Source: a virus (taxonomy: Duplodnaviria; Heunggongvirae; Uroviricota; Caudoviricetes). From it: a stretch of DNA of 38,452 bases. Positions 2,698-38,452 of the stretch are shown here, in pieces. Made by a program: the position numbers and the translations under genes. The stretch covers positions 1 through 38,452 of IMG/VR virus record IMGVR_UViG_2728369592_000010. One strand, given 5' to 3'. The notes below the pieces were generated by a model that did no database searches, had not been told where the DNA came from, and saw only the letters and a program-made list of their open reading frames with translations. How positions within the stretch are numbered: the stretch's first letter is position 1; each line of letters begins with the position of its first letter.

Positions 2698-3178
2698 CGT
2701 CTTTTCTCCCCGGAATTAACTCGCGTGGATTATCGGAACGGTGATAAAGCCATATACCAATTCGCACAGCGACAATTGACGACACAAATGCGCCAGCAGA
2801 GAAGACGATCCCTTTCTCGAAAGAGTCCTGCGTGATGGTAGGGATCAGGCCGGCTACACCGATAAGGATGGATGCTGTAGGTTTGTAAAAGAGAAGGCCG
2901 CAGAGAAAGCTAAGCATCGACAAGAGTACGCGACGACGAATGGGATACTCTACTGCAGAGGTAACAAAAATAACCGCTCCAGCCAAAGACCCCAAAGCAA
3001 CCTCAGGAGGTGCTCCTGCTATAACCGCCACCAGAGAACTCATGCTAAGCCACTGATTTAAAGACTCACTGGTTATCTGAACTGACATAAAAACCACCGT
3101 TAAATGTGCATATGCCCCACCTAATTTAAGGGGTTCATCATACACAATAAACCACATGTGGTTAAACAGGTAATTCAT
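2684..3178 (-). CDS. Multi-TM membrane protein, putative holin (alternative internal start at Met31 with GGTGG SD)
   Basis: 164 aa with about 4 hydrophobic helices; first gene after the tailspike; no SD before the first ATG but GGTGG precedes an in-frame ATG 90 nt downstream; a seroconversion/flippase-like role cannot be excluded. Confidence 0.5.
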   Translation of the reverse strand: MNYLFNHMWFIVYDEPLKLGGAYAHLTVVFMSVQITSESLNQWLSMSSLVAVIAGAPPEVALGSLAGAVIFVTSAVEYPIRRRVLLSMLSFLCGLLFYKPTASILIGVAGLIPTITQDSFEKGIVFSAGAFVSSIVAVRIGIWLYHRSDNPRELIPGRKDDGNA

Positions 3179-3291
3179 TGTGATACTAATGTTAAACTCA
3201 TTACTGCCGAAAAAGTGTCACTGATTAAAACACGGTAGAGAAATTATTAACGAGTAATTTAGGCATAATTACAATATTTAAGTTATTAATT

Positions 3292-3306
3292 CACTGATTT
3301 AATCAG
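3292..3306. promoter_or_regulatory. Perfect palindrome ACTGAT-TTA-ATCAGT upstream of the lysis cassette, with a related half-site CACTGATTAAAA at 3218-3229
   Basis: Read directly; lies in the 190-bp gap between tailspike stop and first lysis gene. Confidence 0.35.
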
Positions 3307-3326
3307 TAAAAGATAGCTATAACATA

Positions 3327-3345
3327 CCACCTCCCAAGGAGGTGG
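3327..3345 (-). terminator. GC-rich hairpin CCACCTCC-caa-GGAGGTGG downstream of the tailspike gene (weak terminator/attenuator)
   Basis: Perfect 8-bp stem; no clean T-run on the minus strand, so efficiency is uncertain. Confidence 0.35.
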
Positions 3346-3371
3346 TTTAGGAATAACAATAAAATATGTAC

Positions 3372-5387
3372 TTACGCACTTCGTAATAAATGTTTAGACA
3401 TAGCAGCAATACAGAAACAAGATAAGTCAGCGTAATTTACACCGTACATATCCGATTCTTTATCATAAGTAACCAGAGAATAGTCTGTAGGGTTAAGATT
3501 ATATTTCTCCATAATCAGCATTACTTCTTGAGCCATACATCCGAAGTGATACTTATCAGATTCTGCATCTGTCCATTTAAACTTTATCATGCTAATGGCT
3601 AATTCTAGCCCTGCACTATACTCTGCCGTAGATATCTCATACAAATCTTTACATCTACCGTCAGATGTTTGTATTACACCATTAGTTGCAAAGACAGTTT
3701 GCCATCTACGACTAGATTGACCACAAGTTCTTTGATTATCTATCTGGGGGGCAACACTACCATCTATACGCAAATAGTTATCTTCCGCTTGTGCGCCTCC
3801 CATAACACCTTCTAAAAAAGGCAATCCTTTGTGATTATTTACAATGAATTTATTGGAGGTGTCTTCTGATATTCCGGTACCAGCATCTGGACCTATAAAA
3901 ATATTACCATTTCCAGTTGGTAATTTTCTTCCTGCTCTTGCTCCTATCATAACATTCAGGTCACCTGAGGATAGGGAATTGAGAGCATCAACACCAATTG
4001 CTGTATTAAAATTACCTGTGAGAGTCCCAGTGTATGGGTTCTCTGTTGATGATACTCCTCGCAATGCTCCATTACCTATAGCTGTGTTATGATCACCTTG
4101 CTTTAACTCCCTACCAGCTGCATTACCAATAAGGGTATTTCCATTACATTTATTATACCCAAGACGTACACCTTGAGGGTCTGTGTAGATGCCAGTACGC
4201 ATTCCTGCAGAGCGTCCTATTGCAACATTAGCTTCTCCAGAATGGAGTTGCTGCAAAGCTGACATACCAACTGCAACATTGAACCTACCATCCTTACACT
4301 CGTTTAGCGCATCCCTGCCAATACCAATCATGTTATTTCCAGTGGTGGCTTTCTTCAAAGCATTAATACCTATACTGATAATCTCTGTTCCAGAAAATGG
4401 CGACTTATCTGTAAGATCATCTTCTAGAGTATCTCCTGACAAACCACCCACACCAACCACGATTGTGTTAGTGCCGCTAGTTATGTTGCGACCAGAACTT
4501 GGTCCAAGCAAAACCAATTGATTACCTTTACCAGAGTCAGTGTAATTTTTTGCGGCATCATAACCTAAAATAAGGTTGCTATGAGACTGAGCTACATTGG
4601 TAAACGGAATTCGTTCCGCTCCTGTCTCTTTAATTATTTTTCCTGGGCCATAAAATCTTCCATTAATATCTTCCGGCAATAAATACGTGCCATCAGGAAC
4701 ATAAACACCTTGTGGCGAAGCAGATGCCGCGGCAATGAAAGCATCTGTATCATTTGTGACTCCATCACCTTTAGCGCCAAAGTCAAGAACACTGACAGTA
4801 TCCCGCATCTTATCCTGAAACGTTCTATATACCGCGCCTGAACCATACTGAATAAACCAACCAAAACCACCAACAACCCCGGCGATTGCAGCATCGACAT
4901 AATTACACATTGAGCGATTATTTACAGCGTCCTGCTCAAGTGATGGATCTGCAAGGTTAGAAATTCTGTTTTGCTTTGCATCGTAATATTTTGCAAGCAA
5001 AGATGGTTTCATCAATGCACGTCTGAACCACCCAAAACATTGCTGGATCAGCATCGTCAGGTAGTCAAAAGCATCTTCATGCACTTCGGGGAAAAATTTT
5101 CCCTGATTGCGAAGGTCTGTCTCCTGCACTACATCAAGCACACGATCTATCGTAATTCGCCATCCAGCAGCAAGCGGAGACGGAAGAACAACAGAACCGC
5201 CACTATAAGTGCCCGCCCCAGTTACCGTATAACCGGTATCCAGAACCAATTCTGTTACGTTCCCGTTCAGGTCAGACACCTGAACAACCAGGTCGGATTT
5301 TTTGAAAATACGGAAGGTATACGGAAATGATGTCGTAACGCCGTTACCTGTGTATTCGTTGTGGTCAACTTCGGTTGAGACCGTCAT
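3372..5387 (-). CDS. Tailspike / tail fibre with conserved N-terminal particle-binding domain and repeat-rich receptor-binding body
   Basis: N-terminus MTVSTEVDHNEYTGNGVTTSFPYTFRIFKK matches my memory of the epsilon15/phiV10 tailspike head-binding domain; body has repeated N-x-A-I-G-x-x-A motifs; C-terminal about 100 aa may be an intramolecular chaperone; 3' half is AT-rich. Confidence 0.85.
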   Translation of the reverse strand: MTVSTEVDHNEYTGNGVTTSFPYTFRIFKKSDLVVQVSDLNGNVTELVLDTGYTVTGAGTYSGGSVVLPSPLAAGWRITIDRVLDVVQETDLRNQGKFFPEVHEDAFDYLTMLIQQCFGWFRRALMKPSLLAKYYDAKQNRISNLADPSLEQDAVNNRSMCNYVDAAIAGVVGGFGWFIQYGSGAVYRTFQDKMRDTVSVLDFGAKGDGVTNDTDAFIAAASASPQGVYVPDGTYLLPEDINGRFYGPGKIIKETGAERIPFTNVAQSHSNLILGYDAAKNYTDSGKGNQLVLLGPSSGRNITSGTNTIVVGVGGLSGDTLEDDLTDKSPFSGTEIISIGINALKKATTGNNMIGIGRDALNECKDGRFNVAVGMSALQQLHSGEANVAIGRSAGMRTGIYTDPQGVRLGYNKCNGNTLIGNAAGRELKQGDHNTAIGNGALRGVSSTENPYTGTLTGNFNTAIGVDALNSLSSGDLNVMIGARAGRKLPTGNGNIFIGPDAGTGISEDTSNKFIVNNHKGLPFLEGVMGGAQAEDNYLRIDGSVAPQIDNQRTCGQSSRRWQTVFATNGVIQTSDGRCKDLYEISTAEYSAGLELAISMIKFKWTDAESDKYHFGCMAQEVMLIMEKYNLNPTDYSLVTYDKESDMYGVNYADLSCFCIAAMSKHLLRSA

Positions 5388-5490
5388 GTTAAATCTCCAG
5401 ATAGTCGCAGCACCCGTTGCGCCGCATATCTGGTTATTCTATTACCTGAAAAACCATATATGGATAGAAAGGCTGTAAATACGAATAGAT

Positions 5491-5507
5491 ATTACCTTTC
5501 AGGTAAT
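5491..5507. promoter_or_regulatory. Operator-like palindrome ATTACCTTTCAGGTAAT (TTACC-N5-GGTAA family)
   Basis: Perfect inverted repeat; identical core to the site at 22435-22449. Confidence 0.6.
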
Positions 5508-5543: not shown

Positions 5544-5563
5544 TACTGTATAAATATACAGTT
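5544..5563. promoter_or_regulatory. LexA (SOS) box TACTGTATAAATATACAGTT
   Basis: CTGT-N8-ACAG with AT-rich spacer, 18/20 match to the E. coli consensus TACTGTATATATATACAGTA; 5-20 bp upstream of the start of the plus-strand small gene. Confidence 0.75.
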
Positions 5564-5568
5564 ATTGC

Positions 5569-5841
5569 ATGGAGAAGATTAAGATGCAGCAGTATCACTA
5601 TCCACTGGAAGACGGATTTACCGAAAGGATTCACACGCCGGGAGGCGTCAGGTCACTGGTGGAGGGATCGCACTTGATGAAATTACTCCGGGATCTCGAT
5701 AAGGATGGATTTAATGTCGATGGCCCACTTGCCGAACTGACTGCACTGATTAACTACGTCACCAGCTCACAGATGTCTATGCAGGATCTGCAAACACATC
5801 TCGACTATTGTGCCGAACAATTACGAAAACAAACCCGGTAA
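5569..5841 (+). CDS. Small SOS-regulated protein, candidate antirepressor (likely start at ATG 5584 after GGAGAAG)
   Basis: Opposite strand to flanking virion genes, own LexA-box promoter and downstream hairpin; 85-90 aa soluble protein with no family I can assign. Confidence 0.6.
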   Translation: MEKIKMQQYHYPLEDGFTERIHTPGGVRSLVEGSHLMKLLRDLDKDGFNVDGPLAELTALINYVTSSQMSMQDLQTHLDYCAEQLRKQTR

Positions 5842-5848
5842 ATTTAAA

Positions 5849-5877
5849 GGCCGCAAGAGCGGCCTGTGACATGTCAC
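5849..5877. terminator. Bidirectional terminator region: hairpin GGCCGC-aaga-GCGGCC followed by palindrome GTGACATGTCAC and a T-run
   Basis: Read directly; sits between the convergent plus-strand small gene and the minus-strand 98-aa gene. Confidence 0.5.
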
Positions 5878-6170
5878 GCTCTTTTTCTGAATGATAGCCA
5901 TTCGAAAAATGATGACATTCCACCGCAGACAATAGCAAAGATGATCCCACCAAAGAAGAGAAGGCCAGCCTGCCACCACTCCCACCGCCATACATCCACA
6001 GCGCCAACCATACCAACAATCGCTCCAACAAATGGAATATAGCTCACGATGAAAGCAATGGGGGCTGCAATTATCCAGTGCAATCCCCACCATGATTCAA
6101 GCCCAGCCATAATTGCTGCCAACTGAAAAAGACCAACGACGATATAAACAATGAATCCTATAGCTTGCAT
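5874..6170 (-). CDS. Small integral membrane protein (about 3 TM helices)
   Basis: 98-aa hydrophobic ORF with SD AGGTGA; sits within the late operon between internal virion proteins and tailspike. Confidence 0.6.
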   Translation of the reverse strand: MQAIGFIVYIVVGLFQLAAIMAGLESWWGLHWIIAAPIAFIVSYIPFVGAIVGMVGAVDVWRWEWWQAGLLFFGGIIFAIVCGGMSSFFEWLSFRKRA

Positions 6171-6365
6171 GTAGTCACCTATTTACCCAGTAAAAATCAG
6201 AGGCCTCCCCTCAATAAGGCTTGCAACAAGAACTATTCCCTGCACAACAAAGATGAACCAGCAAATAGCTTGAGTCTGAGGGTTAAGAAAATATTTGTAG
6301 CGGTCAATAAATAACAACCCACCAGAAATTATCACACTCAAAATAATTAAAAACACAACACTTCC

Positions 6366-18400: not shown

Positions 18401-18451
18401 CTTCTTTCTCCATTAGTGGGTCTGTTACGACCCACAGGTTAATAACAGGCG

Positions 18452-19444
18452 TTACACCACGCGGGCTTCTGTTTCCAGAAGCGCATCAGTTTCACGGATT
18501 GGTACACCACGGAATGACGTCCACCACTCGCCTTCAGTCTCTTTTACGCTAATCGCCAGAGATGTTTTCTCCAGAGACTGCAAATCAAGAGCCTGGCCTA
18601 CAGTGCGGTTCATGTAGAACACCGGGCGCCCCATGCCACGGTTTGGAATGCGATGCAGTGCTTTAACCATCAACTTCGCAATATTTGCGGCAGAGGAAGG
18701 TTCTGAAAGATTGCTGACATCGATGTTTGCAATGCGAACAACATAACGCCAGTCACGCAGAGCAAGTCCGTTATCCCATTTGTAATGGGTACGGTAGCCT
18801 TCGTACTTGCCGCCATTAGCATCTTCCAGTGTCACCTGGCCTTTATCTTCCATCTGAATGCCAGCCTTCTGCCCTTTCGGGAAGATGCCATGCACGGTGT
18901 TTTCGCCCCACACCACTAACCAGATTGAGGTGTTATCTGTACCCGTGCCACCAGCATCAATGATGTTCTGAGCATTACCTGCAGACAGGCTGGAATAGCG
19001 GGAGGACAGTCCCATAAACTGCTGAGGGTTAACGCTGGAATCACCATAAAACAGCGTCTGCGCCATCTGCTGATTCATCGCTTCAATAAATGCGCGGTCT
19101 TCAGACAGGCGGAATTCGGCGGTATTGCCGTTCAGATCAGCCAGTGACTTATCGACTTCAGCATAGGTTTCCAGCATGCCAACGGAATCGGTTACCTGCA
19201 CTGTGGTTGATTTGCTTGGCTGTACGCCATAGTTCAGCAAACGCCAGGTAGCTGAAGGTAAACCAGAACGAATGGTGGTTCGGTGTCCGGTAGGAAGGTT
19301 CCCTTCGACAAAAGGCATATCCTGAAGGATCGGGTTAGTTTGACCGAGAAGCTCGATAATCTTATCGACTTTCCCGTTTGGATCGACGCGCTTACCCCAG
19401 TCAGCCAGCGTTAGCGCAGTTAAGCCTTTAACAGCCATTGTCAT
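18452..19444 (-). CDS. Major capsid protein
   Basis: 330 aa, follows the scaffold gene and precedes the decoration candidate; size and position match a HK97-fold major capsid protein of epsilon15-type phages. Confidence 0.8.
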   Translation of the reverse strand: MTMAVKGLTALTLADWGKRVDPNGKVDKIIELLGQTNPILQDMPFVEGNLPTGHRTTIRSGLPSATWRLLNYGVQPSKSTTVQVTDSVGMLETYAEVDKSLADLNGNTAEFRLSEDRAFIEAMNQQMAQTLFYGDSSVNPQQFMGLSSRYSSLSAGNAQNIIDAGGTGTDNTSIWLVVWGENTVHGIFPKGQKAGIQMEDKGQVTLEDANGGKYEGYRTHYKWDNGLALRDWRYVVRIANIDVSNLSEPSSAANIAKLMVKALHRIPNRGMGRPVFYMNRTVGQALDLQSLEKTSLAISVKETEGEWWTSFRGVPIRETDALLETEARVV

Positions 19445-19452
19445 TTCCTCTC

Positions 19453-20154
19453 TTATTTGCCATAGAGCACTTCGGCCGCACTACGCTGGCCTTCATTACC
19501 ACCGGTGACCATGCCATCTTCAGACATCGCCTTTCCGATTTTCACGAACGTTTTGACCAGATCAGGGTGATTACCCAGCCCGGTGGTGTTCAGATATTCT
19601 TTGAGTTCAGGTGTCCCGAACTGGTCAAGCGCACGCTGTGCGGCGCTAAGGTTAGAAATCAACTTGTCGCCACCGATTTCTTTGTCAGCTTTTACATCCG
19701 CAGCCCACTGCTCGGTTGTTTTCTGCCAGGCTTCTGCCTGGCGCTGCTGAACACCTGCCAGAATCTTCGGATAAGCATCAACCAGCTTTTGCGCTTGCTC
19801 GTTGGTCAGGTTAAGTTCTCGCGCCACCGGCTCGAATTCCTTCAACGCTTCTGTATCCAGCTCTACGCCTTCGGCAGCCTGAAACTCGTACTTCTCAGGC
19901 GCACCCTCTGGTTTATCGCCGTCCTTTTTTTCATCCTGCTTATCGTTTTCAGGCTTTTTGTCATCAGCAGGTTTATCGCCATCAGCAACAGGTTGTGGCT
20001 TATCACCTTCCTGTTGTGATGGATCACCAACTGGAGCAGGGTTATCACCTGCAGGCGCTGACGGTTCTGACGCAGCCGGAGCTGCTCCACCATCGACTGG
20101 TTGCTCATTGCAAAGACGGCGATACAGCAAACGCTCAAATAAATTCATGATCAC
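19453..20154 (-). CDS. Scaffolding protein
   Basis: 233 aa, acidic, low-complexity Pro/Asp/Lys-rich segment then coiled coil, located between portal and capsid genes. Confidence 0.7.
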   Translation of the reverse strand: MIMNLFERLLYRRLCNEQPVDGGAAPAASEPSAPAGDNPAPVGDPSQQEGDKPQPVADGDKPADDKKPENDKQDEKKDGDKPEGAPEKYEFQAAEGVELDTEALKEFEPVARELNLTNEQAQKLVDAYPKILAGVQQRQAEAWQKTTEQWAADVKADKEIGGDKLISNLSAAQRALDQFGTPELKEYLNTTGLGNHPDLVKTFVKIGKAMSEDGMVTGGNEGQRSAAEVLYGK

Positions 20155-20447
20155 TCCTGTTCACTGGCCTCTTTGGCCATCTTCAAATACTGTTCAGGGC
20201 AATGCGCCATAACGCGCTGAAACAGTTCCAGCGCCAGATTGCGTTGCCCCTCATTAAATGCCATTGCCATAGCATCCATCGGAGAGATAGCGGAAAACAC
20301 CCGGCCTTTCTCCAGCACAGACCAGACAACGCGACGCCCATGTTCACTGCTCATGACAAAGCGAATGTCATCAATTTCACGCTGTGCCATGTCACGTTGC
20401 TTACGGGCGTTTTCTTCTTTCAGTTGATCGTCTTCGTAATCTGTCAT
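20151..20447 (-). CDS. Small head-assembly protein, unknown function
   Basis: 98-aa ORF overlapping portal stop and scaffold start. Confidence 0.6.
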   Translation of the reverse strand: MTDYEDDQLKEENARKQRDMAQREIDDIRFVMSSEHGRRVVWSVLEKGRVFSAISPMDAMAMAFNEGQRNLALELFQRVMAHCPEQYLKMAKEASEQE

Positions 20448-22123
20448 TGTGATTGCCCACCCTGACCACTAACTACATTCGCCATAGCTGACAAAACACT
20501 CGGATCCGAAGTTTTAGCTTCGCTTAGCGTTTTGGCACCCTGTGCCGCCGCCATCCCCATCGCCATCATTTGTTGCTGCTGTTGCTGCTGTGCCCGTTGC
20601 TGGCGAGCCTGCTCAACCTGTTCCTGCGGAACAATGACGGTTGGAGACACTCCGGACATATCAGCGAATGCATCGATCGCCTGATCAACGTTGAGTTTGT
20701 CGAGAGCTTCTGGTTTCGCTTGCGCAAGTTGACCAATGAAGTTAACCGTGGACGCCAGACTGGACAGGCCGATAGACTTCTGCGCCTGAGCCATGACGGA
20801 AATGTATTCGACCTTCAGGGGCATACCTTCCATCGCGTCAGGCGGTGGCGGCAGCATGTTTTTACGCACCATCATCGAGAAAGCGCGGTCAATGAGAGGG
20901 TTAAGACATTCGTCGTTCAGACGCTCCAGAACCGGCCCCAACATCAGAAGCTTTTCTTCTTTCATTTCGATCACTGCTTCAACAGGCATCGAGCGGGTAT
21001 TGATGTTCTGCAACATCATGAACAGATCGACAAAGTAGGCGCTGTTAATGATTTGGCGGGTGTCCTGAATGTCTGCTACCAGATCTGCTGTACTGGGGTT
21101 AACCAGATAAGCAGGCCTGAAACCATCCTGACCAGTAATCTGATCGATATACGTGATGTCGCCAGGAAGAAGAGAGGCGCGCTGATTCTTGAGGGAAGTC
21201 GGAGCAACCATCGGCGGATTGGTGGCTTTATCAATCAACTGCGACTTGCGCTGCTGGAGAAGCTGCAATGCCTTAACAGGTCCAAGCGCCAGCATACCCG
21301 GGCATGATGATCCATAAACATCTTCGCCGTTAACTTCCCAGCGCGGAGCCATAATTGGAAACTCATCGAATCCGGACTCACGCAACAACTTGTCGTTATC
21401 GCCGCCAACCTCGTAATAAACCGATTTGAATGGCTTGTTCTTGCTATCCAGCTTCGATGTATCGCGGTCAATGTTCGGGTAAACCGAATGCATAACTTCA
21501 ATCCACTTCTCGTAGGTGCCGCTTTCCCACATGCTTTTTACGGATTCGCTGACGTTATTTAGCCCGAACTCCTGAACAAGCTGACGAACAGTCATAGAGA
21601 ACTTGCGAAAACAGGTGTCCACACTGCCACGAGGTGAGTTAGCCAGGTAGTAACTGCCTATCGGGAATGGCATTGTGCGAATGATGTCCTCGTCATCCTC
21701 CAGCACCGCCATTGCACCAGTGCTGTATGTACCGAGGCTTCCGTATAACTGCGGCAGCGACTGGTAGAGATTCGACTTATTGAACATATCGTTCATACGG
21801 TTCTGCACCGCCTCAAGCCACAACTTAACAGGTCCATAATCCATCATTTCAGGATCTGGCGTAGCCAGGCGAAACCACGGACGCGCTGGGCTTGTGATGC
21901 CTGACATCATGCCGCTGGCGAGAGTGCGCGCCGCCATAGTCCCGGTCGAATCAATAATGCGTGTATTGCGTCGATCGTTACGGTTGACCTCAGAAGTCAG
22001 AAAGCGGGAACCACGCGGGTTGATGTAATCACTCAACTCGCGCCAGTGCGGCTCGAACGACTGACGCTCGCTTTCAAGTTGTGCGAACTGTTTGTTCAAT
22101 CGCTCTTTAGTTGTTTCCGCCAT
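20444..22123 (-). CDS. Portal protein
   Basis: 559-aa ORF in portal position between terminase and scaffold/capsid genes. Confidence 0.85.
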   Translation of the reverse strand: MAETTKERLNKQFAQLESERQSFEPHWRELSDYINPRGSRFLTSEVNRNDRRNTRIIDSTGTMAARTLASGMMSGITSPARPWFRLATPDPEMMDYGPVKLWLEAVQNRMNDMFNKSNLYQSLPQLYGSLGTYSTGAMAVLEDDEDIIRTMPFPIGSYYLANSPRGSVDTCFRKFSMTVRQLVQEFGLNNVSESVKSMWESGTYEKWIEVMHSVYPNIDRDTSKLDSKNKPFKSVYYEVGGDNDKLLRESGFDEFPIMAPRWEVNGEDVYGSSCPGMLALGPVKALQLLQQRKSQLIDKATNPPMVAPTSLKNQRASLLPGDITYIDQITGQDGFRPAYLVNPSTADLVADIQDTRQIINSAYFVDLFMMLQNINTRSMPVEAVIEMKEEKLLMLGPVLERLNDECLNPLIDRAFSMMVRKNMLPPPPDAMEGMPLKVEYISVMAQAQKSIGLSSLASTVNFIGQLAQAKPEALDKLNVDQAIDAFADMSGVSPTVIVPQEQVEQARQQRAQQQQQQQMMAMGMAAAQGAKTLSEAKTSDPSVLSAMANVVSGQGGQSQ

Positions 22124-22412: not shown

Positions 22413-22450
22413 TTGACATTTAACGCACGAATTATTACCTTTCAGGTAAC
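22413..22450 (+). promoter_or_regulatory. Candidate promoter (-35 TTGACA at 22413-22418) overlapped by operator-like palindrome ATTACCTTTCAGGTAAC (22434-22450)
   Basis: Consensus -35 hexamer on the plus strand about 350 nt upstream of the tRNA; operator covers the expected -10/+1 region. Confidence 0.45.
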
Positions 22451-22935: not shown

Positions 22936-23011
22936 AGCAGGACGCCATTGCGATGACTTCATGCTGTAAACCAGTACAGCCACGGAAGGCGGAACTCATT
23001 GCTTCCAGTTC

Positions 23012-23036: not shown

Positions 23037-23041
23037 GCCTG

Positions 23042-23920
23042 ATGACCACAAATTACCTTAAAGGTATAATCATGAAAAACTTTAAGGTAATTAGTATGTT
23101 CGAATCGTTCAAAGAGCTGTTTTTATCTACTGCCAATACTGCCGTGCATCGAGCTAAAAACCCTGTGCTTGGTGCTTTTGTTATGTCCTGGTGCGCCTTC
23201 AACTGGAAATCACTTCTTTATCTATTTTTTAGCAAATCAAATATAATAGATAAAATTTCATACATCTCAGATAACAGCACATGGAAAACTGTTATGTTTT
23301 ATCCATGCTTATCTGTAATTACTATCTGCTGCCTATTACCATGGGTAAACAATATCATTAACGTATGGCAAGCAAAGCCTCTTGATAATAATGACTCAAT
23401 CGAAAATCACCGGAAGGCAAGAAAAATACAACGTGAAACACGGCTACAGAGATTGCTGGCTAAAAAAGACATTACTTACGAAAAAGTAAAAACAGGCGCT
23501 GAAAAAAACATTCAAGACATGAAAGAGGAAATAATTCTTTCAAAAGACAGAATGGGACAACTCACATCTGAATTGAAAGAGAGGGAGACAGAACTGCGCG
23601 CAGAACAAGCTCGTATTTTAGAATTATCTAAGGTTATTGATGAAACAACATCTAAACTAGAAAATCTAGAAAAAGCTCACAAAAATTTAAAAAACGAATA
23701 TGAGTCCTATAAGAAAAACATTCCTTTGGCAACAAATAATACAATTGCTAATGGGCTTGTAGGTCTAAAATCATTACAAGACCTTAATGAGTCCGTAAAG
23801 AAACTTGGCGTTACTGGAATTAACAATCCAGAAATCAATACATTATTGAATAATCCTCTAGTAAATATAAATGGTGGTTTAAATTCCACCTATCAAAGAA
23901 AATTAAAAACACAAAAGTAA
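23042..23920 (+). CDS. AT-rich moron: membrane-anchored coiled-coil protein of unknown function (candidate exclusion/abortive-infection effector); probable start at ATG 23096
   Basis: Clearly AT-rich relative to flanks (by eye about 35% vs about 50% GC); opposite strand to terminase and portal; own -10 TATAAT at 23065-23070 overlapped by near-operator TTACCTTAAAGGTAT (23053-23067); two N-terminal TM helices then about 120-aa coiled coil; uses AGA/AGG Arg codons. Confidence 0.75.
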   Translation: MTTNYLKGIIMKNFKVISMFESFKELFLSTANTAVHRAKNPVLGAFVMSWCAFNWKSLLYLFFSKSNIIDKISYISDNSTWKTVMFYPCLSVITICCLLPWVNNIINVWQAKPLDNNDSIENHRKARKIQRETRLQRLLAKKDITYEKVKTGAEKNIQDMKEEIILSKDRMGQLTSELKERETELRAEQARILELSKVIDETTSKLENLEKAHKNLKNEYESYKKNIPLATNNTIANGLVGLKSLQDLNESVKKLGVTGINNPEINTLLNNPLVNINGGLNSTYQRKLKTQK

Positions 23921-23923
23921 AAA

Positions 23924-25393
23924 TCATTCAAATGGGTCATAGTCTGTTATAGCCCTGCCCTGCTGCTGCCGTGGGTCATTAGTTTTCTTGGCTACCGGGA
24001 AAGCAAACGTCAGCAGTAGCGCATCGCCTTTACCCGGCGAACGCCCAAGCCGCTCTTTGATATCTTCCTTCGGTTCGATAACGATTTTACCGTCCACACG
24101 AACTTTGTACTCTGCCGCCGACAGGTCATCCGCTGTTTCCTGGTCATCCAGCATCCCGCCGAGCCTCAGCCATGTCTTGCATGAGTTGAACATCTCCCCG
24201 CGCTTATTGAGCATCTGCGGGTCAGTAGACGCGCCGCCGAACGGAACAAGTTGCCATGTACGACCCCAGCCGTCACCGATTGACTTCAGACCGGTACCGT
24301 AACCGAAGTCGATGAACACCGCGTCAGCCTGATACTGGTCTTCAAAGTCAGCGATACGCTTTGCCATAATCAGATCGTCAGTGGTCTTGTTGCCGGTCCA
24401 CAGCACCTTACTGTGCAGCCCCTGCCGCAGGTATATCACCGCGTCATCAACGCCTGAGTATGCCGGGTCAACGCCGATTATCACCGGAGCATGTGCAACC
24501 TGCGCAGCGGTGACCACCCGTTTCATTGCCTCGTCAGTAAGTCCGGTAGGGATAAACTGCAATTCAGATGCATCCGGGAATATGCCGCGCACACGGATTT
24601 TAACGAAGTCGCTGTCTTCCCCGTAGTCATCAACCCATTTCTGCAACTGCTGTTTGTTAGTGCCTTCCACCGTCCGGCTGTCAATCTGCGCAGTTTTCCA
24701 GCGGTGTTTATATTTGCGGAAACATTCGCGGAAACGCCCGGTGTTACGTGTAGGGTTTCCGAACGCCACCCAGATAATCTCAGTGTCTTCGTCCGTTAGC
24801 GCCCCCTCAGCAACTTCCCACACCAGATCCGCAATGTTCGACGCTTCATCGAATACCACGATGATGCGTTTGCGCTCGTTGTGTAGTCCGGCGAATGCCT
24901 CAGTGTTGTGCTCAGACCAGGGGATTGCGTCAGCTCGCCACCGCTTGTCGTGCCCAGGATCATTGCTGTACATCGCGGTAGCGGTACAGGTAAACCAGTC
25001 TTTCGTGATAGCAAGGTTCGACCACTTGATAATTTCCGGCCAGGTCTTCGTTCGTAGCTGGTTGTCGGTGTTGGCGGTCACCACGACCTTACAATCCTCG
25101 CAAGTGGACATGCCCCAGTTGATCAGCATTGAGATGAATGCGGATTTACCAATACCGTGACCAGAAGCGCGTGCCAGCATAAGCGGCTGATAGCGCGTCT
25201 CTGGATTCTGCAGGTGATCACGTATCTCTCGGAACGCATCAGCCTGCCACTGACGTGGGCCGGTAGCATGTGCCAGTTCAGTCCCCTCTTCCCCCCACGG
25301 GAACGCATAGAGGGCATAGCCAAGCGGATCGTGAGTGAACCCTGCAATATCCTCGATCAACTGCTCTTCAGGAGATAACGCTGTATCTGTCAC
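23924..25393 (-). CDS. Terminase large subunit
   Basis: 489 aa; N-terminal ATPase features and C-terminal nuclease region; ATGA overlap with small-subunit stop. Confidence 0.9.
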   Translation of the reverse strand: MTDTALSPEEQLIEDIAGFTHDPLGYALYAFPWGEEGTELAHATGPRQWQADAFREIRDHLQNPETRYQPLMLARASGHGIGKSAFISMLINWGMSTCEDCKVVVTANTDNQLRTKTWPEIIKWSNLAITKDWFTCTATAMYSNDPGHDKRWRADAIPWSEHNTEAFAGLHNERKRIIVVFDEASNIADLVWEVAEGALTDEDTEIIWVAFGNPTRNTGRFRECFRKYKHRWKTAQIDSRTVEGTNKQQLQKWVDDYGEDSDFVKIRVRGIFPDASELQFIPTGLTDEAMKRVVTAAQVAHAPVIIGVDPAYSGVDDAVIYLRQGLHSKVLWTGNKTTDDLIMAKRIADFEDQYQADAVFIDFGYGTGLKSIGDGWGRTWQLVPFGGASTDPQMLNKRGEMFNSCKTWLRLGGMLDDQETADDLSAAEYKVRVDGKIVIEPKEDIKERLGRSPGKGDALLLTFAFPVAKKTNDPRQQQGRAITDYDPFE

Positions 25394-25986
25394 TGATTAC
25401 CATCCTGACGTTCTTTGAGTCGCTTCCTGGCTGCTGCTATGCGATCAGCAATTGTCACATTCACATTAACATCCAGACGTTCTTTGAACGCGTTGACATC
25501 AACATGCTTACCAATCAGCTCAAGGTTCTTCACCTTGTCAGGCCATTTAATTTTTTTGAGGATTGTCTCTATCGAATCCTCGTTCATGTTCATGATGGTC
25601 GATGACAGATCAAAGCCACTAAGCGTAGTGCGCCAGATTTTCGGCCACTCACGGATTGGTTTAAGGCTCCCATCGTCGTTGAGGATGTCGATCACGTCCA
25701 TCTGGTCGATCTCCACCAGGCGCATGAGAACGTAATCAGCACTGACGCGCATTCGTTTGTTGCGCTCCTCCATCAACTCGGCAATCCGTTTTTGAATGCG
25801 TTCATCGCGCATCATGACACTGGCTTTAACTGCCGCTGTATTTGGGGAGAATCCTGCGTTAATCGCTGCCTGAGTCTGGTTTTCAGGCGTTTTGATGTAT
25901 GACTGGCAATAAGCCTCCTGCATTGCTGTTAGTGGCTTAAATTGCGTTGATTTGCGTTTATAGGTTTTAGGTTCAGCAGGCATCAT
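25390..25986 (-). CDS. Terminase small subunit (start set at MMPAEP; ORF-track start at 26064 adds a low-complexity extension without SD)
   Basis: Motif AAINAGFSPNTAAVKASVMMRDERIQKRIAE is typical of small terminase DNA-binding domains; GGTGG before the internal ATGs. Confidence 0.75.
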   Translation of the reverse strand: MMPAEPKTYKRKSTQFKPLTAMQEAYCQSYIKTPENQTQAAINAGFSPNTAAVKASVMMRDERIQKRIAELMEERNKRMRVSADYVLMRLVEIDQMDVIDILNDDGSLKPIREWPKIWRTTLSGFDLSSTIMNMNEDSIETILKKIKWPDKVKNLELIGKHVDVNAFKERLDVNVNVTIADRIAAARKRLKERQDGNQ

Positions 25987-25993
25987 AACCACC

Positions 25994-26025
25994 GTGGTAA
26001 TAGTTACCGTTGTGGTAATAGTACC
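25994..26025. repeat. Two direct copies of an everted GGTAA/TTACC element (GTGGTAATAGTTACC and GTGGTAATAGTACC) upstream of the terminase small subunit
   Basis: Read directly; half-sites are the same as the operator family but in everted arrangement with 3-bp spacer. Confidence 0.4.
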
Positions 26026-26096: not shown

Positions 26097-26108
26097 GTGA
26101 CATGTCAC
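26097..26108. repeat. 12-bp perfect palindrome GTGACATGTCAC (second copy at 5866-5877)
   Basis: Identical 12-mers at two loci, each overlapping the TGA stop of a small minus-strand gene at the same palindrome positions. Confidence 0.5.
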
Positions 26109-26443
26109 ACTATTAATTTCGTTTCATGCCAGCCTTTAGTCACCCAGCATTGCGAGTCACCATTACACGGGCATGAATTAACTGGAACTCTCTCGCCGCA
26201 CTTACCGCAACATTTTCTGCTGATCGATTTTATACGCCCGCGCACGCGTGCATCATCCTGGCGGATCAGTAACGCTATATACTCACCAAATTCGTAAGGC
26301 GCACGCCCGGGGCGACGCGTGGCACAGTTACGCTCCAGCATTTCAATTTCCTGAGCATCAAGCACAATTTCCAGCTTACGCACACCAGATGCAGCTTGTC
26401 TGGCTCTCTGAGCGGCTTTGCGCTCTGCTGCTGATTTAGCCAT
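26105..26443 (-). CDS. Small Cys-rich protein (putative zinc-ribbon regulator), last gene before the packaging operon
   Basis: 112 aa; basic N-terminal helix then C-terminal CCGKCG...CPCNGDSQC cysteine cluster. Confidence 0.6.
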   Translation of the reverse strand: MAKSAAERKAAQRARQAASGVRKLEIVLDAQEIEMLERNCATRRPGRAPYEFGEYIALLIRQDDARVRGRIKSISRKCCGKCGERVPVNSCPCNGDSQCWVTKGWHETKLIV

Positions 26444-29596: not shown

Positions 29597-29673
29597 TTAC
29601 CCCTTAGGTAATTAAAAACCACATAAGACACGAAATCAATAGATTTTAGAATATTTTATTACCTCAAAGGTAA
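29597..29673 (-). promoter_or_regulatory. Promoter-operator cassette: operator TTACCTCAAAGGTAA (29659-29673), -35 TTGATT (29634-29639, minus), 17-bp spacer, -10 TTTAAT, operator TTACCCCTTAGGTAA (29597-29611) overlapping -10/+1 and the SD
   Basis: Same geometry as the plus-strand cassette at 32702-32778. Confidence 0.6.
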
Positions 29674-31674: not shown

Positions 31675-31905
31675 TCATGAGTAGAAGAAGTATGCCAGTT
31701 CTGCTTTTGAGCGCAACCATTGTCTTGATTTACAGGCTTTAAAAAGCCCATTCATCAATACTTTACCTGGCATTTTGCGCTTACCTGTTAAGTGAGTCTG
31801 GATATAGTGACTCGTCGTTCCGGCTTCCTGTGCGAAGGCTTCACGCTCATCCGGAGTAAGTGCAAGCCAGTGCTTTTTGAAATCGAAATGTCCGTTATCG
31901 CTCAT
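31675..31905 (-). CDS. Cro-like small HTH regulator, first gene of the lytic-direction operon
   Basis: 76 aa with HTH-like segment EREAFAQEAGTTSHYIQTHLTGKR; divergent from the repressor gene across an operator cluster. Confidence 0.6.
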   Translation of the reverse strand: MSDNGHFDFKKHWLALTPDEREAFAQEAGTTSHYIQTHLTGKRKMPGKVLMNGLFKACKSRQWLRSKAELAYFFYS

Positions 31906-31941: not shown

Positions 31942-32004
31942 TCACCCATAAGGTAACAAAAATCAAGGATAGTTACCTATGGGGTGCATTTACCTGTTGG
32001 GTAA
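31942..32004. promoter_or_regulatory. Tripartite operator cluster between Cro-like and repressor genes: TCACCCATAAGGTAA (31942-31956), TTACCTATGGGGTGC (31973-31987), TTACCTGTTGGGTAA (31990-32004)
   Basis: Three TTACC-N5-GGTAA-family sites in the 154-bp divergent intergenic region. Confidence 0.6.
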
Positions 32005-32059: not shown

Positions 32060-32644
32060 ATGAAAAGTATCCAGGACGTCCGCAGGCAAAATCTCAACGA
32101 CTTGATCGACCGTGAATTCAATGGTGTTCAGACGCGGATGGCAGAAAAACTTGGAACTCAGGCAAATCTGGTAAACCGCTGGGCTCTTGGCAAGAAGGTT
32201 ATCGGCGACCAGGTTGCGCGAAAAATTGAAGCTGCCGCCAATAAACCCCGTAACTGGCTTGATATCGATCGCTCGCTTTCTCAGGAAGGTTTTCAGCCTG
32301 TCGGCCCAAGCGACATTGGTCAGCTAGCGGCTCACAACCTGGAACGCTGGATGAGCGAAAGCCGCGACCTTTCAACACAGGGAAAACTTCACCGCGCATC
32401 CGGCGTCGCCCAGGTGACAATCAGCCGCCTGTTAAACAATGAGGTCAGCGTTTCCATTTCCACCCTGGAGAATGTTGCATCCGCATTCGGGCGTCACGGA
32501 TATGAACTACTGATTCACCCGCACGACCCTGCGACTATCAACTATGACCGCTCACGCTACGCATTGTTACCCGAAACCGAGAAAGCAAAGATCGAAAGTT
32601 ACATTGAATTTGTCATCAACCAGAACGAAAAAAGCAAACAATAA
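32060..32644 (+). CDS. Immunity repressor candidate with two tandem XRE-type HTH domains and no recognisable S24 autocleavage domain
   Basis: HTH-like segments at about residues 20-65 and 110-150; no Ala-Gly cleavage site or Ser/Lys peptidase motifs seen; divergent from the Cro-like gene. Confidence 0.7.
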   Translation: MKSIQDVRRQNLNDLIDREFNGVQTRMAEKLGTQANLVNRWALGKKVIGDQVARKIEAAANKPRNWLDIDRSLSQEGFQPVGPSDIGQLAAHNLERWMSESRDLSTQGKLHRASGVAQVTISRLLNNEVSVSISTLENVASAFGRHGYELLIHPHDPATINYDRSRYALLPETEKAKIESYIEFVINQNEKSKQ

Positions 32645-32701
32645 AACTATAGTTTTCAGTAAGTAAGCCGCCTCATGGCGGCTTTTTTATTGCCAGATAG
32701 A

Positions 32702-32778
32702 TTACCTTACGGGTAATTTTTTTAACTCATATCTATTGACACCAAACCAAATAAGCATAATTATTACCCCAACGGTAA
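32702..32778 (+). promoter_or_regulatory. Early-left promoter-operator cassette: operator TTACCTTACGGGTAA (32702-32716), -35 TTGACA (32736-32741), 17-bp spacer, -10 AATTAT, operator TTACCCCAACGGTAA (32764-32778)
   Basis: Read directly; geometry mirrors the minus-strand cassette at 29597-29673. Confidence 0.6.
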
Positions 32779-34273: not shown

Positions 34274-35187
34274 GCAACGAAATTGCAATCACCAATGATG
34301 TGTTGGCTATTCGGGGAATCGATGAAGTTACATGGAGCGCTCTGAAAAACAGTATTTACCCTGGGGCAAAAGATGAATCGGTAATGATGGCAGTCGATTA
34401 CTGCCGGGCGCGTCAACTCGATCCTCTTCTTAAGCCGGTACACCTGGTACCAATGAGTGTTAAAGACTCGAAGAGTGGAAAGAATGAATGGCGCGACGTG
34501 GTCATGCCTGGCATTGGACTTTATCGCATTCAGGCCTACCGTTCCGGCGATTACGCAGGCGCTAATGAACCTGAGTTCGGTCCAGATGTAACACAAACGC
34601 TTTCAGGCGTGGAGGTTACCTTCCCTCAGTGGTGTAAGTACACCGTCAGCAAGCGAATGGCAAGCGGGGAAATCGTAGAGTTTAGCGCCAAAGAATACTG
34701 GATTGAGAACTATGCAACTGGGGGGCGTGACACATCGGCACCAAATGCCATGTGGAAAAAGCGCCCTTATGCGCAGTTGGCAAAATGCGCAGAGGCACAG
34801 GCATTACGTAAAGCATGGCCGGAGATTGGTCAACAAGCCACAGCTGAGGAAATGGAAGGTAAATATATCGACTCACCTGACATTATTGAACGTGACGTAA
34901 CTCCAAGAAGTCAGGCAAAGCACGGCACAGCATCCAGCATGAACAGTCTGATCAACGCTAAACCAGTGAAAAAGCCTGATGAGCAAACGCGTAAAGCGGA
35001 TAGCCGTGATCCAGAAGAAATGCTGATGGCCTTTACCAGCGCAGCGATGAATTACAGCACTGTATCCGAACTGGATAAGGCTTACAAATACATTGCACAA
35101 AAACTTTCAGATGATGACGAACTACTGGCAAAAGCCACCGACGTTTACAGCGTTCGTCGGGAAGAATTAAACGAAACATCTATGTAA
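34270..35187 (+). CDS. recT: RecT-family single-strand annealing recombinase
   Basis: Motif WKKRPYAQLAKCAEAQALRKAWPE characteristic of RecT; start at ATG 34270 overlapping upstream stop (ATGA). Confidence 0.85.
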   Translation: MSNEIAITNDVLAIRGIDEVTWSALKNSIYPGAKDESVMMAVDYCRARQLDPLLKPVHLVPMSVKDSKSGKNEWRDVVMPGIGLYRIQAYRSGDYAGANEPEFGPDVTQTLSGVEVTFPQWCKYTVSKRMASGEIVEFSAKEYWIENYATGGRDTSAPNAMWKKRPYAQLAKCAEAQALRKAWPEIGQQATAEEMEGKYIDSPDIIERDVTPRSQAKHGTASSMNSLINAKPVKKPDEQTRKADSRDPEEMLMAFTSAAMNYSTVSELDKAYKYIAQKLSDDDELLAKATDVYSVRREELNETSM

Positions 35188-37195: not shown

Positions 37196-38452
37196 TTATT
37201 TATTACTGTCTTCCATCCACCTCTCAAACTTCGACGGGGAGAACGGAATCAGATCCGTATGCTCCCCGTTAATCCAGGAATCAATCATATCGGCCCACTG
37301 CTGCAACATGTAGGCGCGCTGTCTGGCGTATTCCGCTTTGTTATATACGGCGCGCACACCTTTCTGCTCATGTGCCAGAGCCTTTTCAATCCAGTCTGAA
37401 GGATAACCAGCCTCATGCAACAACGTACTTGCTGTACGGCGCATATCGTGTACGGTGAAGTCCTGAATATGCTCACCATCTTCATTTATTATTTTCACCG
37501 TTCTGTCGATCAGAGAGTTCAGCGCGGCATTAGATAATGGCTTCCGGAAATTGTAACGACCAGGAACCAGATATTCACTTCCACCAGCGCACATCTGCAA
37601 CCCAACCAATATATCCTGTGCCTGTTTAGGCAGGTAAATAACGTGCGCCCGGCTTCCCTTCATGCGGTCTGAAGGAATTGTCCATGTCCATTTTTTAAAA
37701 TCTATTTCGTCCCACGTTGCATTAGTGAATTCTCCTTTACGAACCATAGTGATAAGCACCAGCTTTAAAGCCATTTTCATAGTGCCCATAGCACCAATGG
37801 CATCCAGCGTGCGGAAGAACAGGCCAATTTCTTCTGGTGTCAGTGTTCGCTCTCGTGGTTTAAATATGGCGATAGACGAAGGTTTAATGTCAGCCGCAGG
37901 ATTAAACAAACCATGACCACGGTCATTGGCGTGACGGTATACGCTGCTGATGATCTCCCTGGCCTGTACTGCTGTTGCACGGCCACCGCGTTCGACAATC
38001 CGGTCACACAAATCACGAACCATCGATGTGGTAATTTCAGCCATCATTTTGTTGCCAAGAACCGGAAGTATGTCACGGTCGATCACCGCCTGCTTCATTG
38101 CGCGGGTACTGTCAGCCAGGATGACGTGTTTCATATAACTGTCGGTATGTACCGCAAACGTCTCGGCACCACGAATCTTTTTGATACCGTCACGTTTAGC
38201 CGCAGCCGGCGACTGGCCTGCTTTAAGCAGCTTCTTTGCAGCAATCAGTTCTTCTCGCGCTTCTGCCAGGCTGATACCGTCACGCCCATACTGCCCGATT
38301 ACCAGTGTTTCGCGGCGACCGTTGATACGGTAGTCATAGCGAAACGAGACCGTGCCTGACGTAAGCACAGCTACATACAGCCCGTCACGATCGGAGACCT
38401 TGTACAGTTTGTCCTGCGGCTTGAGGTTTTTTAATTTTGTATCGGTAAGCAC
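37196..38452 (-). CDS. int: Tyrosine recombinase / phage integrase (P4-like), start at or just beyond the window edge
   Basis: N-terminus LTDTKLKNLKP typical of P4-type integrases; C-terminal HDMRRT and downstream Tyr catalytic motifs; first in-window codon is GTG at 38452. Confidence 0.9.
   Translation of the reverse strand: MLTDTKLKNLKPQDKLYKVSDRDGLYVAVLTSGTVSFRYDYRINGRRETLVIGQYGRDGISLAEAREELIAAKKLLKAGQSPAAAKRDGIKKIRGAETFAVHTDSYMKHVILADSTRAMKQAVIDRDILPVLGNKMMAEITTSMVRDLCDRIVERGGRATAVQAREIISSVYRHANDRGHGLFNPAADIKPSSIAIFKPRERTLTPEEIGLFFRTLDAIGAMGTMKMALKLVLITMVRKGEFTNATWDEIDFKKWTWTIPSDRMKGSRAHVIYLPKQAQDILVGLQMCAGGSEYLVPGRYNFRKPLSNAALNSLIDRTVKIINEDGEHIQDFTVHDMRRTASTLLHEAGYPSDWIEKALAHEQKGVRAVYNKAEYARQRAYMLQQWADMIDSWINGEHTDLIPFSPSKFERWMEDSNK

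Follow-up and report, generated by a model that had tools for sequence, protein, structure and literature searches.

The window, as the whole stretch of 38,452 nucleotides analysed here is called, contains an immunity region built around rep, a gene for a 194-aa protein. Across a 154-bp intergenic gap, rep is divergent from a Cro-like early gene, which is syntenic with SPC32H_042 and phiV10 p41 and whose product matched no Pfam or NCBIfam family. The following features define the region and the end of the window beyond it:

32060-32644, plus strand: rep, open reading frame with an ATG start, 194 aa, ortholog of SPC32H Rep
31675-31905, minus strand: Cro-like early gene, 76-aa HTH protein, divergent from rep; matches phrog_35 'transcriptional repressor' (8.7e-13)
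32665-32684, plus strand: intrinsic terminator after rep, consisting of an 8-bp stem, in which 6 pairs are GC, and then a T-run; phiV10 is annotated with a terminator at the same place
32736-32764, plus strand: early promoter TTGACA-17-AATTAT, just past the rep terminator and inside the element 32702-32778
37196-38452: integrase gene, at the opposite end of the window from the att core

The neighbours of rep are the Cro-like gene and small early genes assigned to phrog_898 and phrog_856; no protease gene, for instance of the COG2856/ImmA type, adjoins rep in the window. As in SPC32H, rep is divergent from a Cro-like gene and recombination genes follow. A leftward promoter, TTGTTA-17-TATTAT, is predicted at 31959-31931 and is overlapped by the first of the candidate operators described below (31942-31956).

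The window is a Uetakevirus (phiV10/epsilon15-type) prophage of E. coli integrated at the 3' end of guaA. It is collinear with phiV10 taken in prophage order, and the DNA of its immunity region is 97-98% identical to that of phiV10, PAS61, TL-2011b and others. The att core reported for phage ZX5, ATTGAGTGGGAATGATT (PMC9782041), was located at positions 1164-1180. Missing from the window are the Bro-N (p23) gene of phiV10, the stretch 5842-6362 standing in place of phiV10 19339-20542, and the O-acetyltransferase gene of phiV10; the tailspike is also different.

Relatives, domains and fold of Rep

Rep is 100% identical to a protein of phage HEMP4 and 99.5% identical to both phiV10 p40 and ZX5 ORF21. 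Identity falls to 78% with Enterobacter phage Tyrion, 45% with Klebsiella podophages and 43% with the repressors of epsilon15, SPN1S and SPC32H. A phmmer search aligned residues 1-190 with residues 2-197 of the 'Repressor' chain of PDB 5D50_A, from the SPC32H Rep-Ant complex (E=3.5e-42), and PDB 5D4Z, which corresponds to SPC32H Rep 92-198, was matched as well. By part, identity to SPC32H Rep amounts to 54% in the N-terminal domain, 17% in the linker and 41% in the C-terminal half, with residues 152-194 aligning to SPC32H Rep 157-198. The phiV10 record itself describes p40 as having 'two helix-turn-helix motifs (PF01381); similar to putative repressor epsilon15p38'.

Pfam HTH_3 was matched by two stretches of Rep, the better one at residues 106-147 (E=1.2e-9), and a YdaS/Cro-type HTH match covers residues 21-61. 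An AlphaFold2 model built from 38 relatives (mean pLDDT 79.6) places a first helical bundle at the N-terminus (helices 4-19, 24-31, 35-43 and 50-59) and, beyond a disordered linker at 74-82, a second bundle (helices 83-100, 107-114, 118-125, 133-142 and 147-151). The C-terminal module, which closes with a long helix at 172-193, was modelled at low confidence (pLDDT 53-79). When the model was compared with the PDB by Foldseek, 5D50 and 5D4Z headed the list, and over the C-terminal half the TM-score was 0.75 (5D4Z). The architecture of SPC32H Rep, in which a linker joins the two HTH bundles and a helix closes the C-terminus, is thus present in Rep, its last module at low model confidence.

According to PMC9986798, SPC32H Rep consists of an N-terminal DNA-binding part, a middle dimerisation part and a C-terminal part that tetramerises and binds Ant; the same paper names this last module CAD and assigns it a p53-like beta-beta-alpha fold. 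By homology, the second HTH of Rep would be a dimerisation domain rather than a second DNA reader, and residues ~152-194 would form a third module, for tetramerisation and Ant binding. The protein can be divided as follows:

32060-32269, plus strand: residues 1-70, N-terminal HTH domain with helices 24-31 and 35-43; DNA-binding role as given in PMC9986798
32270-32323, plus strand: residues 71-88, flexible linker, pLDDT below 50 at 74-82 and with indels relative to SPC32H Rep
32324-32512, plus strand: residues 89-151, second HTH_3-fold domain, the putative middle dimerisation domain (MDD) by homology (Pfam, Foldseek, PMC9986798)
32513-32641, plus strand: residues 152-194, putative C-terminal tetramerisation/Ant-binding module (CAD / TetDloop) by homology (alignment; PMC9986798 and PMC9638917)

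Conservation follows these divisions. N36, R40 and W41, located in the presumed recognition helix of the N-terminal domain, are invariant in 38 relatives, and the 'recognition helix' of the second HTH keeps conserved Q118 and R123. In the C-terminal module the conserved residues are P154, D156, I160, Y162, D163, R164, L170, P171, K175, E179 and F184.

Rep carries neither hallmark of S24 self-cleaving repressors, that is, an S24 domain with its Ser/Lys dyad and an Ala-Gly or Cys-Gly bond. A Pfam search returned no match to Peptidase_S24 (PF00717) even at E<=1, and AG, CG and GG dipeptides, as well as cysteine, are absent from the whole sequence. The tail past the second HTH measures ~43 residues, too few for an S24 domain to fit. 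In a collection of 5.8 billion proteins, 86 relatives at 52-98% identity were found, nearly all of 190-200 aa; none of the 86 has an S24 domain, their Pfam domains all being of HTH type. The PDB matches of the Rep model in Foldseek likewise include no S24 fold. The sequence is therefore compatible with a protein that is not cleaved on SOS induction.

The first-pass annotation of this locus had described an immunity repressor of 194 aa, divergent from a Cro-like gene, with two HTH domains and no recognisable peptidase module. The reading frame is exact, with its ATG start and the phrog_35 match of its 76-aa neighbour; both HTH folds were recovered by domain search (Pfam HTH_3 and YdaS/Cro-type) and by structure prediction; and the bona fide S24 domain that was named as grounds for abandoning the claim was detected neither in Rep nor in its relatives nor in the fold search. 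The two-HTH layout needs amending, since the second fold is a dimerisation domain by homology and the third module at ~152-194 had been missed. The immunity role is borne out by the full-length homology to SPC32H Rep and by overexpression of the 99.5%-identical ZX5 ORF21, which left no free phage and lowered endolysin and holin mRNA by 99.97-99.99% (PMC9782041).

The antirepressor gene and its SOS box

Some 26 kb from rep, the window carries a small gene preceded by a LexA box:

5584-5841, plus strand: ant, 85-aa antirepressor (PDB 5D50_E 'Anti-repressor protein'; phrog_450); the called open reading frame starts at 5569
5544-5563, plus strand: LexA (SOS) box TACTGTATAAATATACAGTT, upstream of ant, matching the E. 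coli LexA consensus at 18/20 positions

The open reading frame 5569-5841 matches 5D50_E, the SPC32H Ant of the same crystal entry as Rep, at E=4.4e-47, the identity between the Ant of the window and that of SPC32H being ~88%; neither Pfam nor NCBIfam has a family for the protein. The second ATG, at 5584, is probably the true start, because the alignment, an upstream GGAG and the gene models of phiV10 p24 and SPC32H all agree on it. Homology together with the LexA box just upstream marks 5584-5841 as a predicted SPC32H-type Ant.

No sequence equal to the 18/20 consensus match at 5544-5563 arose in 100 shuffles. The loose pattern CTGT-N8-ACAG occurs at three sites in the window against 0.43 expected; the two others, at 18422 and 22964, were rejected as functional SOS boxes, their spacers being G+C-rich and the 20-mer consensus unmatched within 3 mismatches. 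The box lies ~37 nt 5' of the start codon of ant in each of five genomes, namely the window (-38), phiV10, SPC32H, Tyrion and Klebsiella phage BUCT711, the BUCT711 copy having one mismatch. This distance is fixed across the five although their Rep proteins are just 43-78% identical. It is on these five diverged genomes that conservation of the box rests: a scan of viral contigs for Ant gave 80 loci, but all are 99-100% identical and therefore show prevalence rather than deep conservation, and the box count at the 80 loci is confounded by a pseudo-box with 1 mismatch at -110. A consensus promoter scan found no convincing sigma-70 promoter for ant. A weak TTGCTA-17-TATTGC arrangement across the ant SOS box was spotted by eye.

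The deposited genomes of SPC32H and SPC32N differ at exactly two positions, one being a CTGT>CTTT change in the box equivalent to 5544-5563 and the other lying in the tailspike gene. This comparison agrees with what Kim and Ryu reportedly described in 2013, namely that mutation of the LexA box renders Ant constitutive and the phage lytic. They are also said to have found that SPC32H Rep is not cleaved during SOS.

A separate induction trigger had been proposed for rep in the form of a gene with an SOS box at 5569-5841. The proposal is upheld by the ~88% identity to SPC32H Ant, the 18/20 LexA box and the SPC32N box change. Gene and box are real, and only the start given for the gene, 5569 instead of the probable 5584 with its GGAG and agreeing gene models, has to be shifted.

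Both genes recur among E. coli genomes. Among 5,426 complete genomes, rep is present in 537 (~10%) and ant with its box in 529; in NZ_CM163382.1 a distance of 26.6 kb separates them, as it does in the window. RefSeq labels rep a 'helix-turn-helix domain-containing protein' and ant a 'hypothetical protein'; the functional annotation of the pair could be transferred with good confidence to ~10% of complete E. coli genomes.

A recurrent palindrome as candidate operator

A 15-bp palindrome, TTACC-N5-GGTAA, occurs in the window at 11 sites with <=1 mismatch, against 0.73 expected, and nearly all of them are intergenic. The same bias was found in phiV10, where 12 of 14 sites fall within the intergenic 6.5% of the genome (P=4.5e-13). 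The sites are distributed as follows:

31942-31956, 31973-31987 (2 mismatches) and 31990-32004, no strand: three candidate operators in the rep/cro intergenic region, from the palindrome scan
32702-32716 and 32764-32778: palindrome pair 62 bp apart that brackets the early promoter
29597-29611 and 29659-29673, no strand: second palindrome pair 62 bp apart, downstream of the replication genes
5492-5506, no strand: candidate Rep operator TTACCTTTCAGGTAA, in the gap that separates ant from the tailspike gene
22435: palindrome preceding the structural operon
25986 and 26004: palindromes at the start of terS
23053: palindrome at the start of a 292-aa open reading frame

Nearly every transcription unit is marked by the palindrome, often by two copies that flank a promoter at a spacing of exactly 62 bp. 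Many of the positions are shared. SPC32H has three palindrome sites in the same rep/cro place, and a pair 62-63 bp apart around the early promoter is also found in phiV10, SPC32H, Tyrion and BUCT711. Pairs syntenic to 29597/29659 lie at 35070/35132 in phiV10, 35972/36034 in SPC32H, 37265/37327 in Tyrion and 4210/4272 in BUCT711. On the ant side, the palindrome occupies a fixed position ~54 bp upstream of the SOS box and ~91 nt 5' of the start codon of ant, both in the window and in these four phages.

The Rep operators are most likely of the form TTACC-N5-GGTAA. The invariance of N36, R40 and W41 fits a palindrome that is conserved across Uetakevirus. The Cro-like protein or the phrog_536 regulator encoded at 26105-26443 could bind it instead of Rep, or besides it. 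A literature search, with Kim et al. 2016 outside its scope, returned nothing usable on defined operators in SPC32H, epsilon15 or Uetakevirus.

A broader proposal, which we consider possible but doubtful, is that the palindrome is the Rep operator throughout Uetakevirus, with a double lock on ant and possible cross-induction. If it held, the paired palindromes could allow each promoter to be clamped or looped by a single Rep tetramer. Binding of Rep to the ant-side site would place ant under both LexA and Rep, and induction would become a self-reinforcing switch. Since Ant is ~88% conserved while Rep is 43% identical, one Ant could cross-induce different Uetakevirus prophages. The candidate operator map could also help in the engineering of phiV10-type reporter phages.

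A proposed Rep-Ant switch and its relation to known systems

The gene at 32060-32644 very probably encodes Rep, a lysogeny-maintenance (immunity) repressor of non-S24 type that is inactivated by a LexA-controlled Ant. Its homology, its architecture and its synteny all agree with an SPC32H-type Rep, as does the presence of a partner Ant behind a LexA box, and this is as far as sequence can take the assignment. In the resulting model, homology, domain layout, the absence of S24, the SOS box and synteny come from analysis of the window; tetramer binding, disassembly by Ant and LexA control are taken from the SPC32H literature; and the identity of the operators is one that we infer.

In the lysogen, the N-terminal HTH of Rep would read DNA, the second HTH-fold domain would dimerise, and the short C-terminal beta-beta-alpha module would join two dimers into a DNA-binding tetramer. 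By occupying palindromic operators at the divergent promoters of rep and cro, as well as at other early promoters, this tetramer would keep the lytic genes silent, and host LexA would repress the distant ant (5584-5841) through the near-consensus SOS box. Upon DNA damage, LexA would be destroyed and Ant made; an Ant tetramer would then bind the C-terminal module of Rep and split the Rep tetramer into weakly binding dimers, derepressing the prophage. Two steps have precedents. PMC9638917 states that SPC32H Rep binds DNA as a tetramer, which the Ant tetramer splits into poorly DNA-binding dimers, and PMC7380047, citing Kim & Ryu, has an Ant made after LexA self-cleavage that inhibits the repressor through protein-protein contact. 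For the present pair, the binding of Ant and the disassembly of the tetramer are extrapolated, because SPC32H Rep is 43% identical overall and 41% identical in the C-terminal half. Having no S24 protease module, Rep could not be triggered to self-cleave by RecA*; it would lack a self-cleaving protease domain because a small SOS-controlled antirepressor switches it off.

Several other readings of the locus were weighed against this model. Improbable, though the best of them, is the view that both HTH domains bind DNA and that each chain reads two half-sites. It can draw on the second domain, whose HTH_3 score is better than that of the first and whose 'recognition helix' conserves Q118 and R123, and on the occurrence of palindromes in pairs. 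Yet a single palindrome type is over-represented, as fits a single DNA-reading domain, and in SPC32H Rep the equivalent region is described as a dimerisation domain and the N-terminal one alone as DNA-binding (PMC9986798).

Somewhat less probable again is that Rep is inactivated mainly by other means, such as a separate protease, a Bro-N-like antirepressor or dilution, with Ant accessory or non-functional here. In phiV10 and ZX5, ant has a Bro-N 'anti-repressor' as an additional neighbour, lysogeny fell when the Bro-N protein was overexpressed, and the Ant-binding half of Rep is just 41% identical to its SPC32H counterpart. The 'ORF4 anti-repressor' tested in the ZX5 study was this Bro-N protein, a homolog of phiV10 p23, rather than the small Ant (PMC9782041). 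The window, however, has no Bro-N gene and yet keeps ant and the SOS box intact, and no protease gene, of ImmA type (COG2856) or other, lies beside rep. The layout of SOS box and ant is moreover conserved across the genus, and the ~88% conservation of Ant between E. coli and Salmonella phages indicates strong selection.

It is hardly credible that Rep, instead of being the prophage master repressor, serves as an antitoxin of HigA/VapI type or controls a moron gene as a generic XRE regulator. The phage BP9 record labels the identical protein 'plasmid maintenance system antidote protein VapI', residues 24-71 match NCBIfam HigA weakly, and distant HigA hits are among the Foldseek matches. The HigA match, however, scores 18.7 bits where the cutoff is 47.7, no HigB-like toxin gene adjoins rep, and the gene lies where an immunity repressor canonically does, facing away from a Cro-like gene. 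Rep is also homologous along its whole length to SPC32H Rep, which has been defined experimentally, and the 99.5%-identical ZX5 ORF21 shuts the lytic cycle down when overexpressed. A hidden S24 domain was rejected on the results from Pfam, the 86 relatives and Foldseek.

The preferred reading, a Rep inactivated by a LexA-controlled Ant, carries little weight as a discovery, and its practical value lies in annotation. The Rep-Ant-LexA switch is already known from SPC32H, where its description and crystal structures date from 2013-2016, and several phage records already annotate the identical E. coli protein as a repressor. Only the genus-wide palindrome map, including the site upstream of ant, is mildly new.

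The closest known system is that of SPC32H (Kim & Ryu 2013, J Virol; Kim et al. 2016, PNAS; PDB 5D4Z and 5D50). It shares with the window the genus Uetakevirus, the gene positions, a three-module Rep without S24, a small Ant (~88%) behind a LexA box and the same palindrome at syntenic sites. It differs in its host, which is Salmonella and not E. coli, and the two are also unlike in the spacing of the rep-proximal operators (20/28 bp against 17/30 bp). From phiV10 p40, ZX5 ORF21 and the HEMP4 repressor, the Rep of the window shows essentially no difference at the protein level; at the genome level, phiV10 carries Bro-N and O-acetyltransferase genes and another tailspike, whereas the window copy is an integrated prophage without those two genes.

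The same logic, a non-cleavable repressor paired with a small LexA-repressed antirepressor, is ascribed to CI/Tum of coliphage 186 and to Salmonella Gifsy/Fels-2 in PMC7380047. The proteins of these phages are unrelated to Rep and Ant, and they act otherwise than by the disassembly of a tetramer through its C-terminal domain that is described for SPC32H. The Ant of SPC32H is reported by Kim and Ryu to be structurally distinct from the Tum type.

With lambda CI, P22 C2 and LexA, Rep has in common an N-terminal XRE-type HTH, SOS-dependent induction, multiple operators and, for the group, the immunity position divergent from cro. Unlike them, it has no S24 domain, Ala-Gly site or Ser/Lys dyad. 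By analogy with SPC32H, it would oligomerise through a second HTH-fold domain and a p53-like tetramerisation module, and its inactivation would be reversible, in contrast to the proteolytic inactivation of lambda CI, P22 C2 and LexA. A more distant parallel is offered by Rco/Rap of pLS20 (TetDloop), which, in the account given in PMC9986798, resembles Rep in its N-terminal HTH, its C-terminal beta-beta-alpha tetramerisation and its relief by a partner protein. Rco differs from Rep in that it is without the middle dimerisation domain, belongs to a conjugative plasmid and responds to peptide quorum sensing as its signal.

Palindromic sites and the region upstream of ant

A 15-bp palindrome, TTACC-N5-GGTAA, occurs at 11 sites in the window against 0.73 expected, and is intergenic in nearly every case. 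Pairs of sites with a spacing of exactly 62 bp frequently flank promoters on both sides, and four other phage genomes (phiV10, SPC32H, Tyrion and the Klebsiella phage BUCT711) keep the motif in syntenic places. This palindrome is a candidate operator for the immunity repressor Rep (or for Cro).

Palindrome sites in the window
5492-5506, about 54 bp upstream of the ant SOS box
22435-22449
23053-23067, one mismatch, at the start of a 292-aa ORF
25986-26018, sites
29597-29673, sites
31942-32004, sites
32702-32778, sites

The deposited genomes of SPC32H and SPC32N differ by exactly two bases. One of these, G>T at position 19960 of those genomes, abolishes the CTGT arm of the SOS box that precedes ant, the small antirepressor gene, a direct confirmation of the published genetics at the sequence level. 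Two additional CTGT-N8-ACAG matches in the window (18422-18437 and 22964-22979) have G+C-rich spacers and are both conserved in phiV10; neither of the two matches the 20-mer LexA consensus within three mismatches, and they are probably chance matches.

A further conserved element, TTCTATTACC...AACCATATATGGATAG, lies at 5430-5475, in the interval from the tailspike gene to the palindrome. It was seen in all five genomes compared, being located upstream of ant also in L001 (phiV10), L002 (SPC32H), L004 and L005, and could serve as a promoter element, either a late one or one for the tailspike gene.

Annotation of rep and ant in E. coli genomes

Across over 500 complete genomes of E. coli, the RefSeq/PGAP names, taken from matches H58-H70 in that genome set, are 'helix-turn-helix domain-containing protein' for rep and 'hypothetical protein' for ant. 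Ant has no model in NCBIfam or Pfam, and its known function therefore fails to propagate.

Prophage ends and comparison with phiV10

The window holds a prophage in its integrated form; the lipoprotein and DUF5384 genes of the flank resemble E. coli yfgH and yfgI, which lie beside guaA.

Features of the prophage
1-1163, host flank with genes for a glycine-zipper lipoprotein and a DUF5384 protein
1164-1180, att core ATTGAGTGGGAATGATT
3372-5387, minus strand, tailspike gene
5874-6170, minus strand, small ORF matching phrog_3075 (PHROG label: unknown function)
23042-23920, plus strand, 292-aa ORF, phrog_4780 (PHROG label: unknown function)
37196-38452, integrase gene, at the opposite end from the att core

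Compared with phiV10, the window lacks the Bro-N 'anti-repressor' gene (phiV10 p23, ZX5 ORF4); about 520 bp (5842-6362), including the small ORF, stand in place of phiV10 19339-20542. In the ZX5 study (PMC9782041), it was this Bro-N protein rather than the small Ant of SPC32H type that was assayed as the anti-repressor.

The tailspike gene has no nucleotide similarity to phiV10 outside the N-terminal head-binding part (region 3167-5263), and the window has no counterpart of the phiV10 O-acetyltransferase gene (oac). Together, these differences suggest that the prophage may have a different O-antigen specificity and would not mediate O-acetylation-based serotype conversion. Between the terminase and structural genes, phiV10 carries p03/p04, whereas the window has the 292-aa ORF instead (23037-23996).
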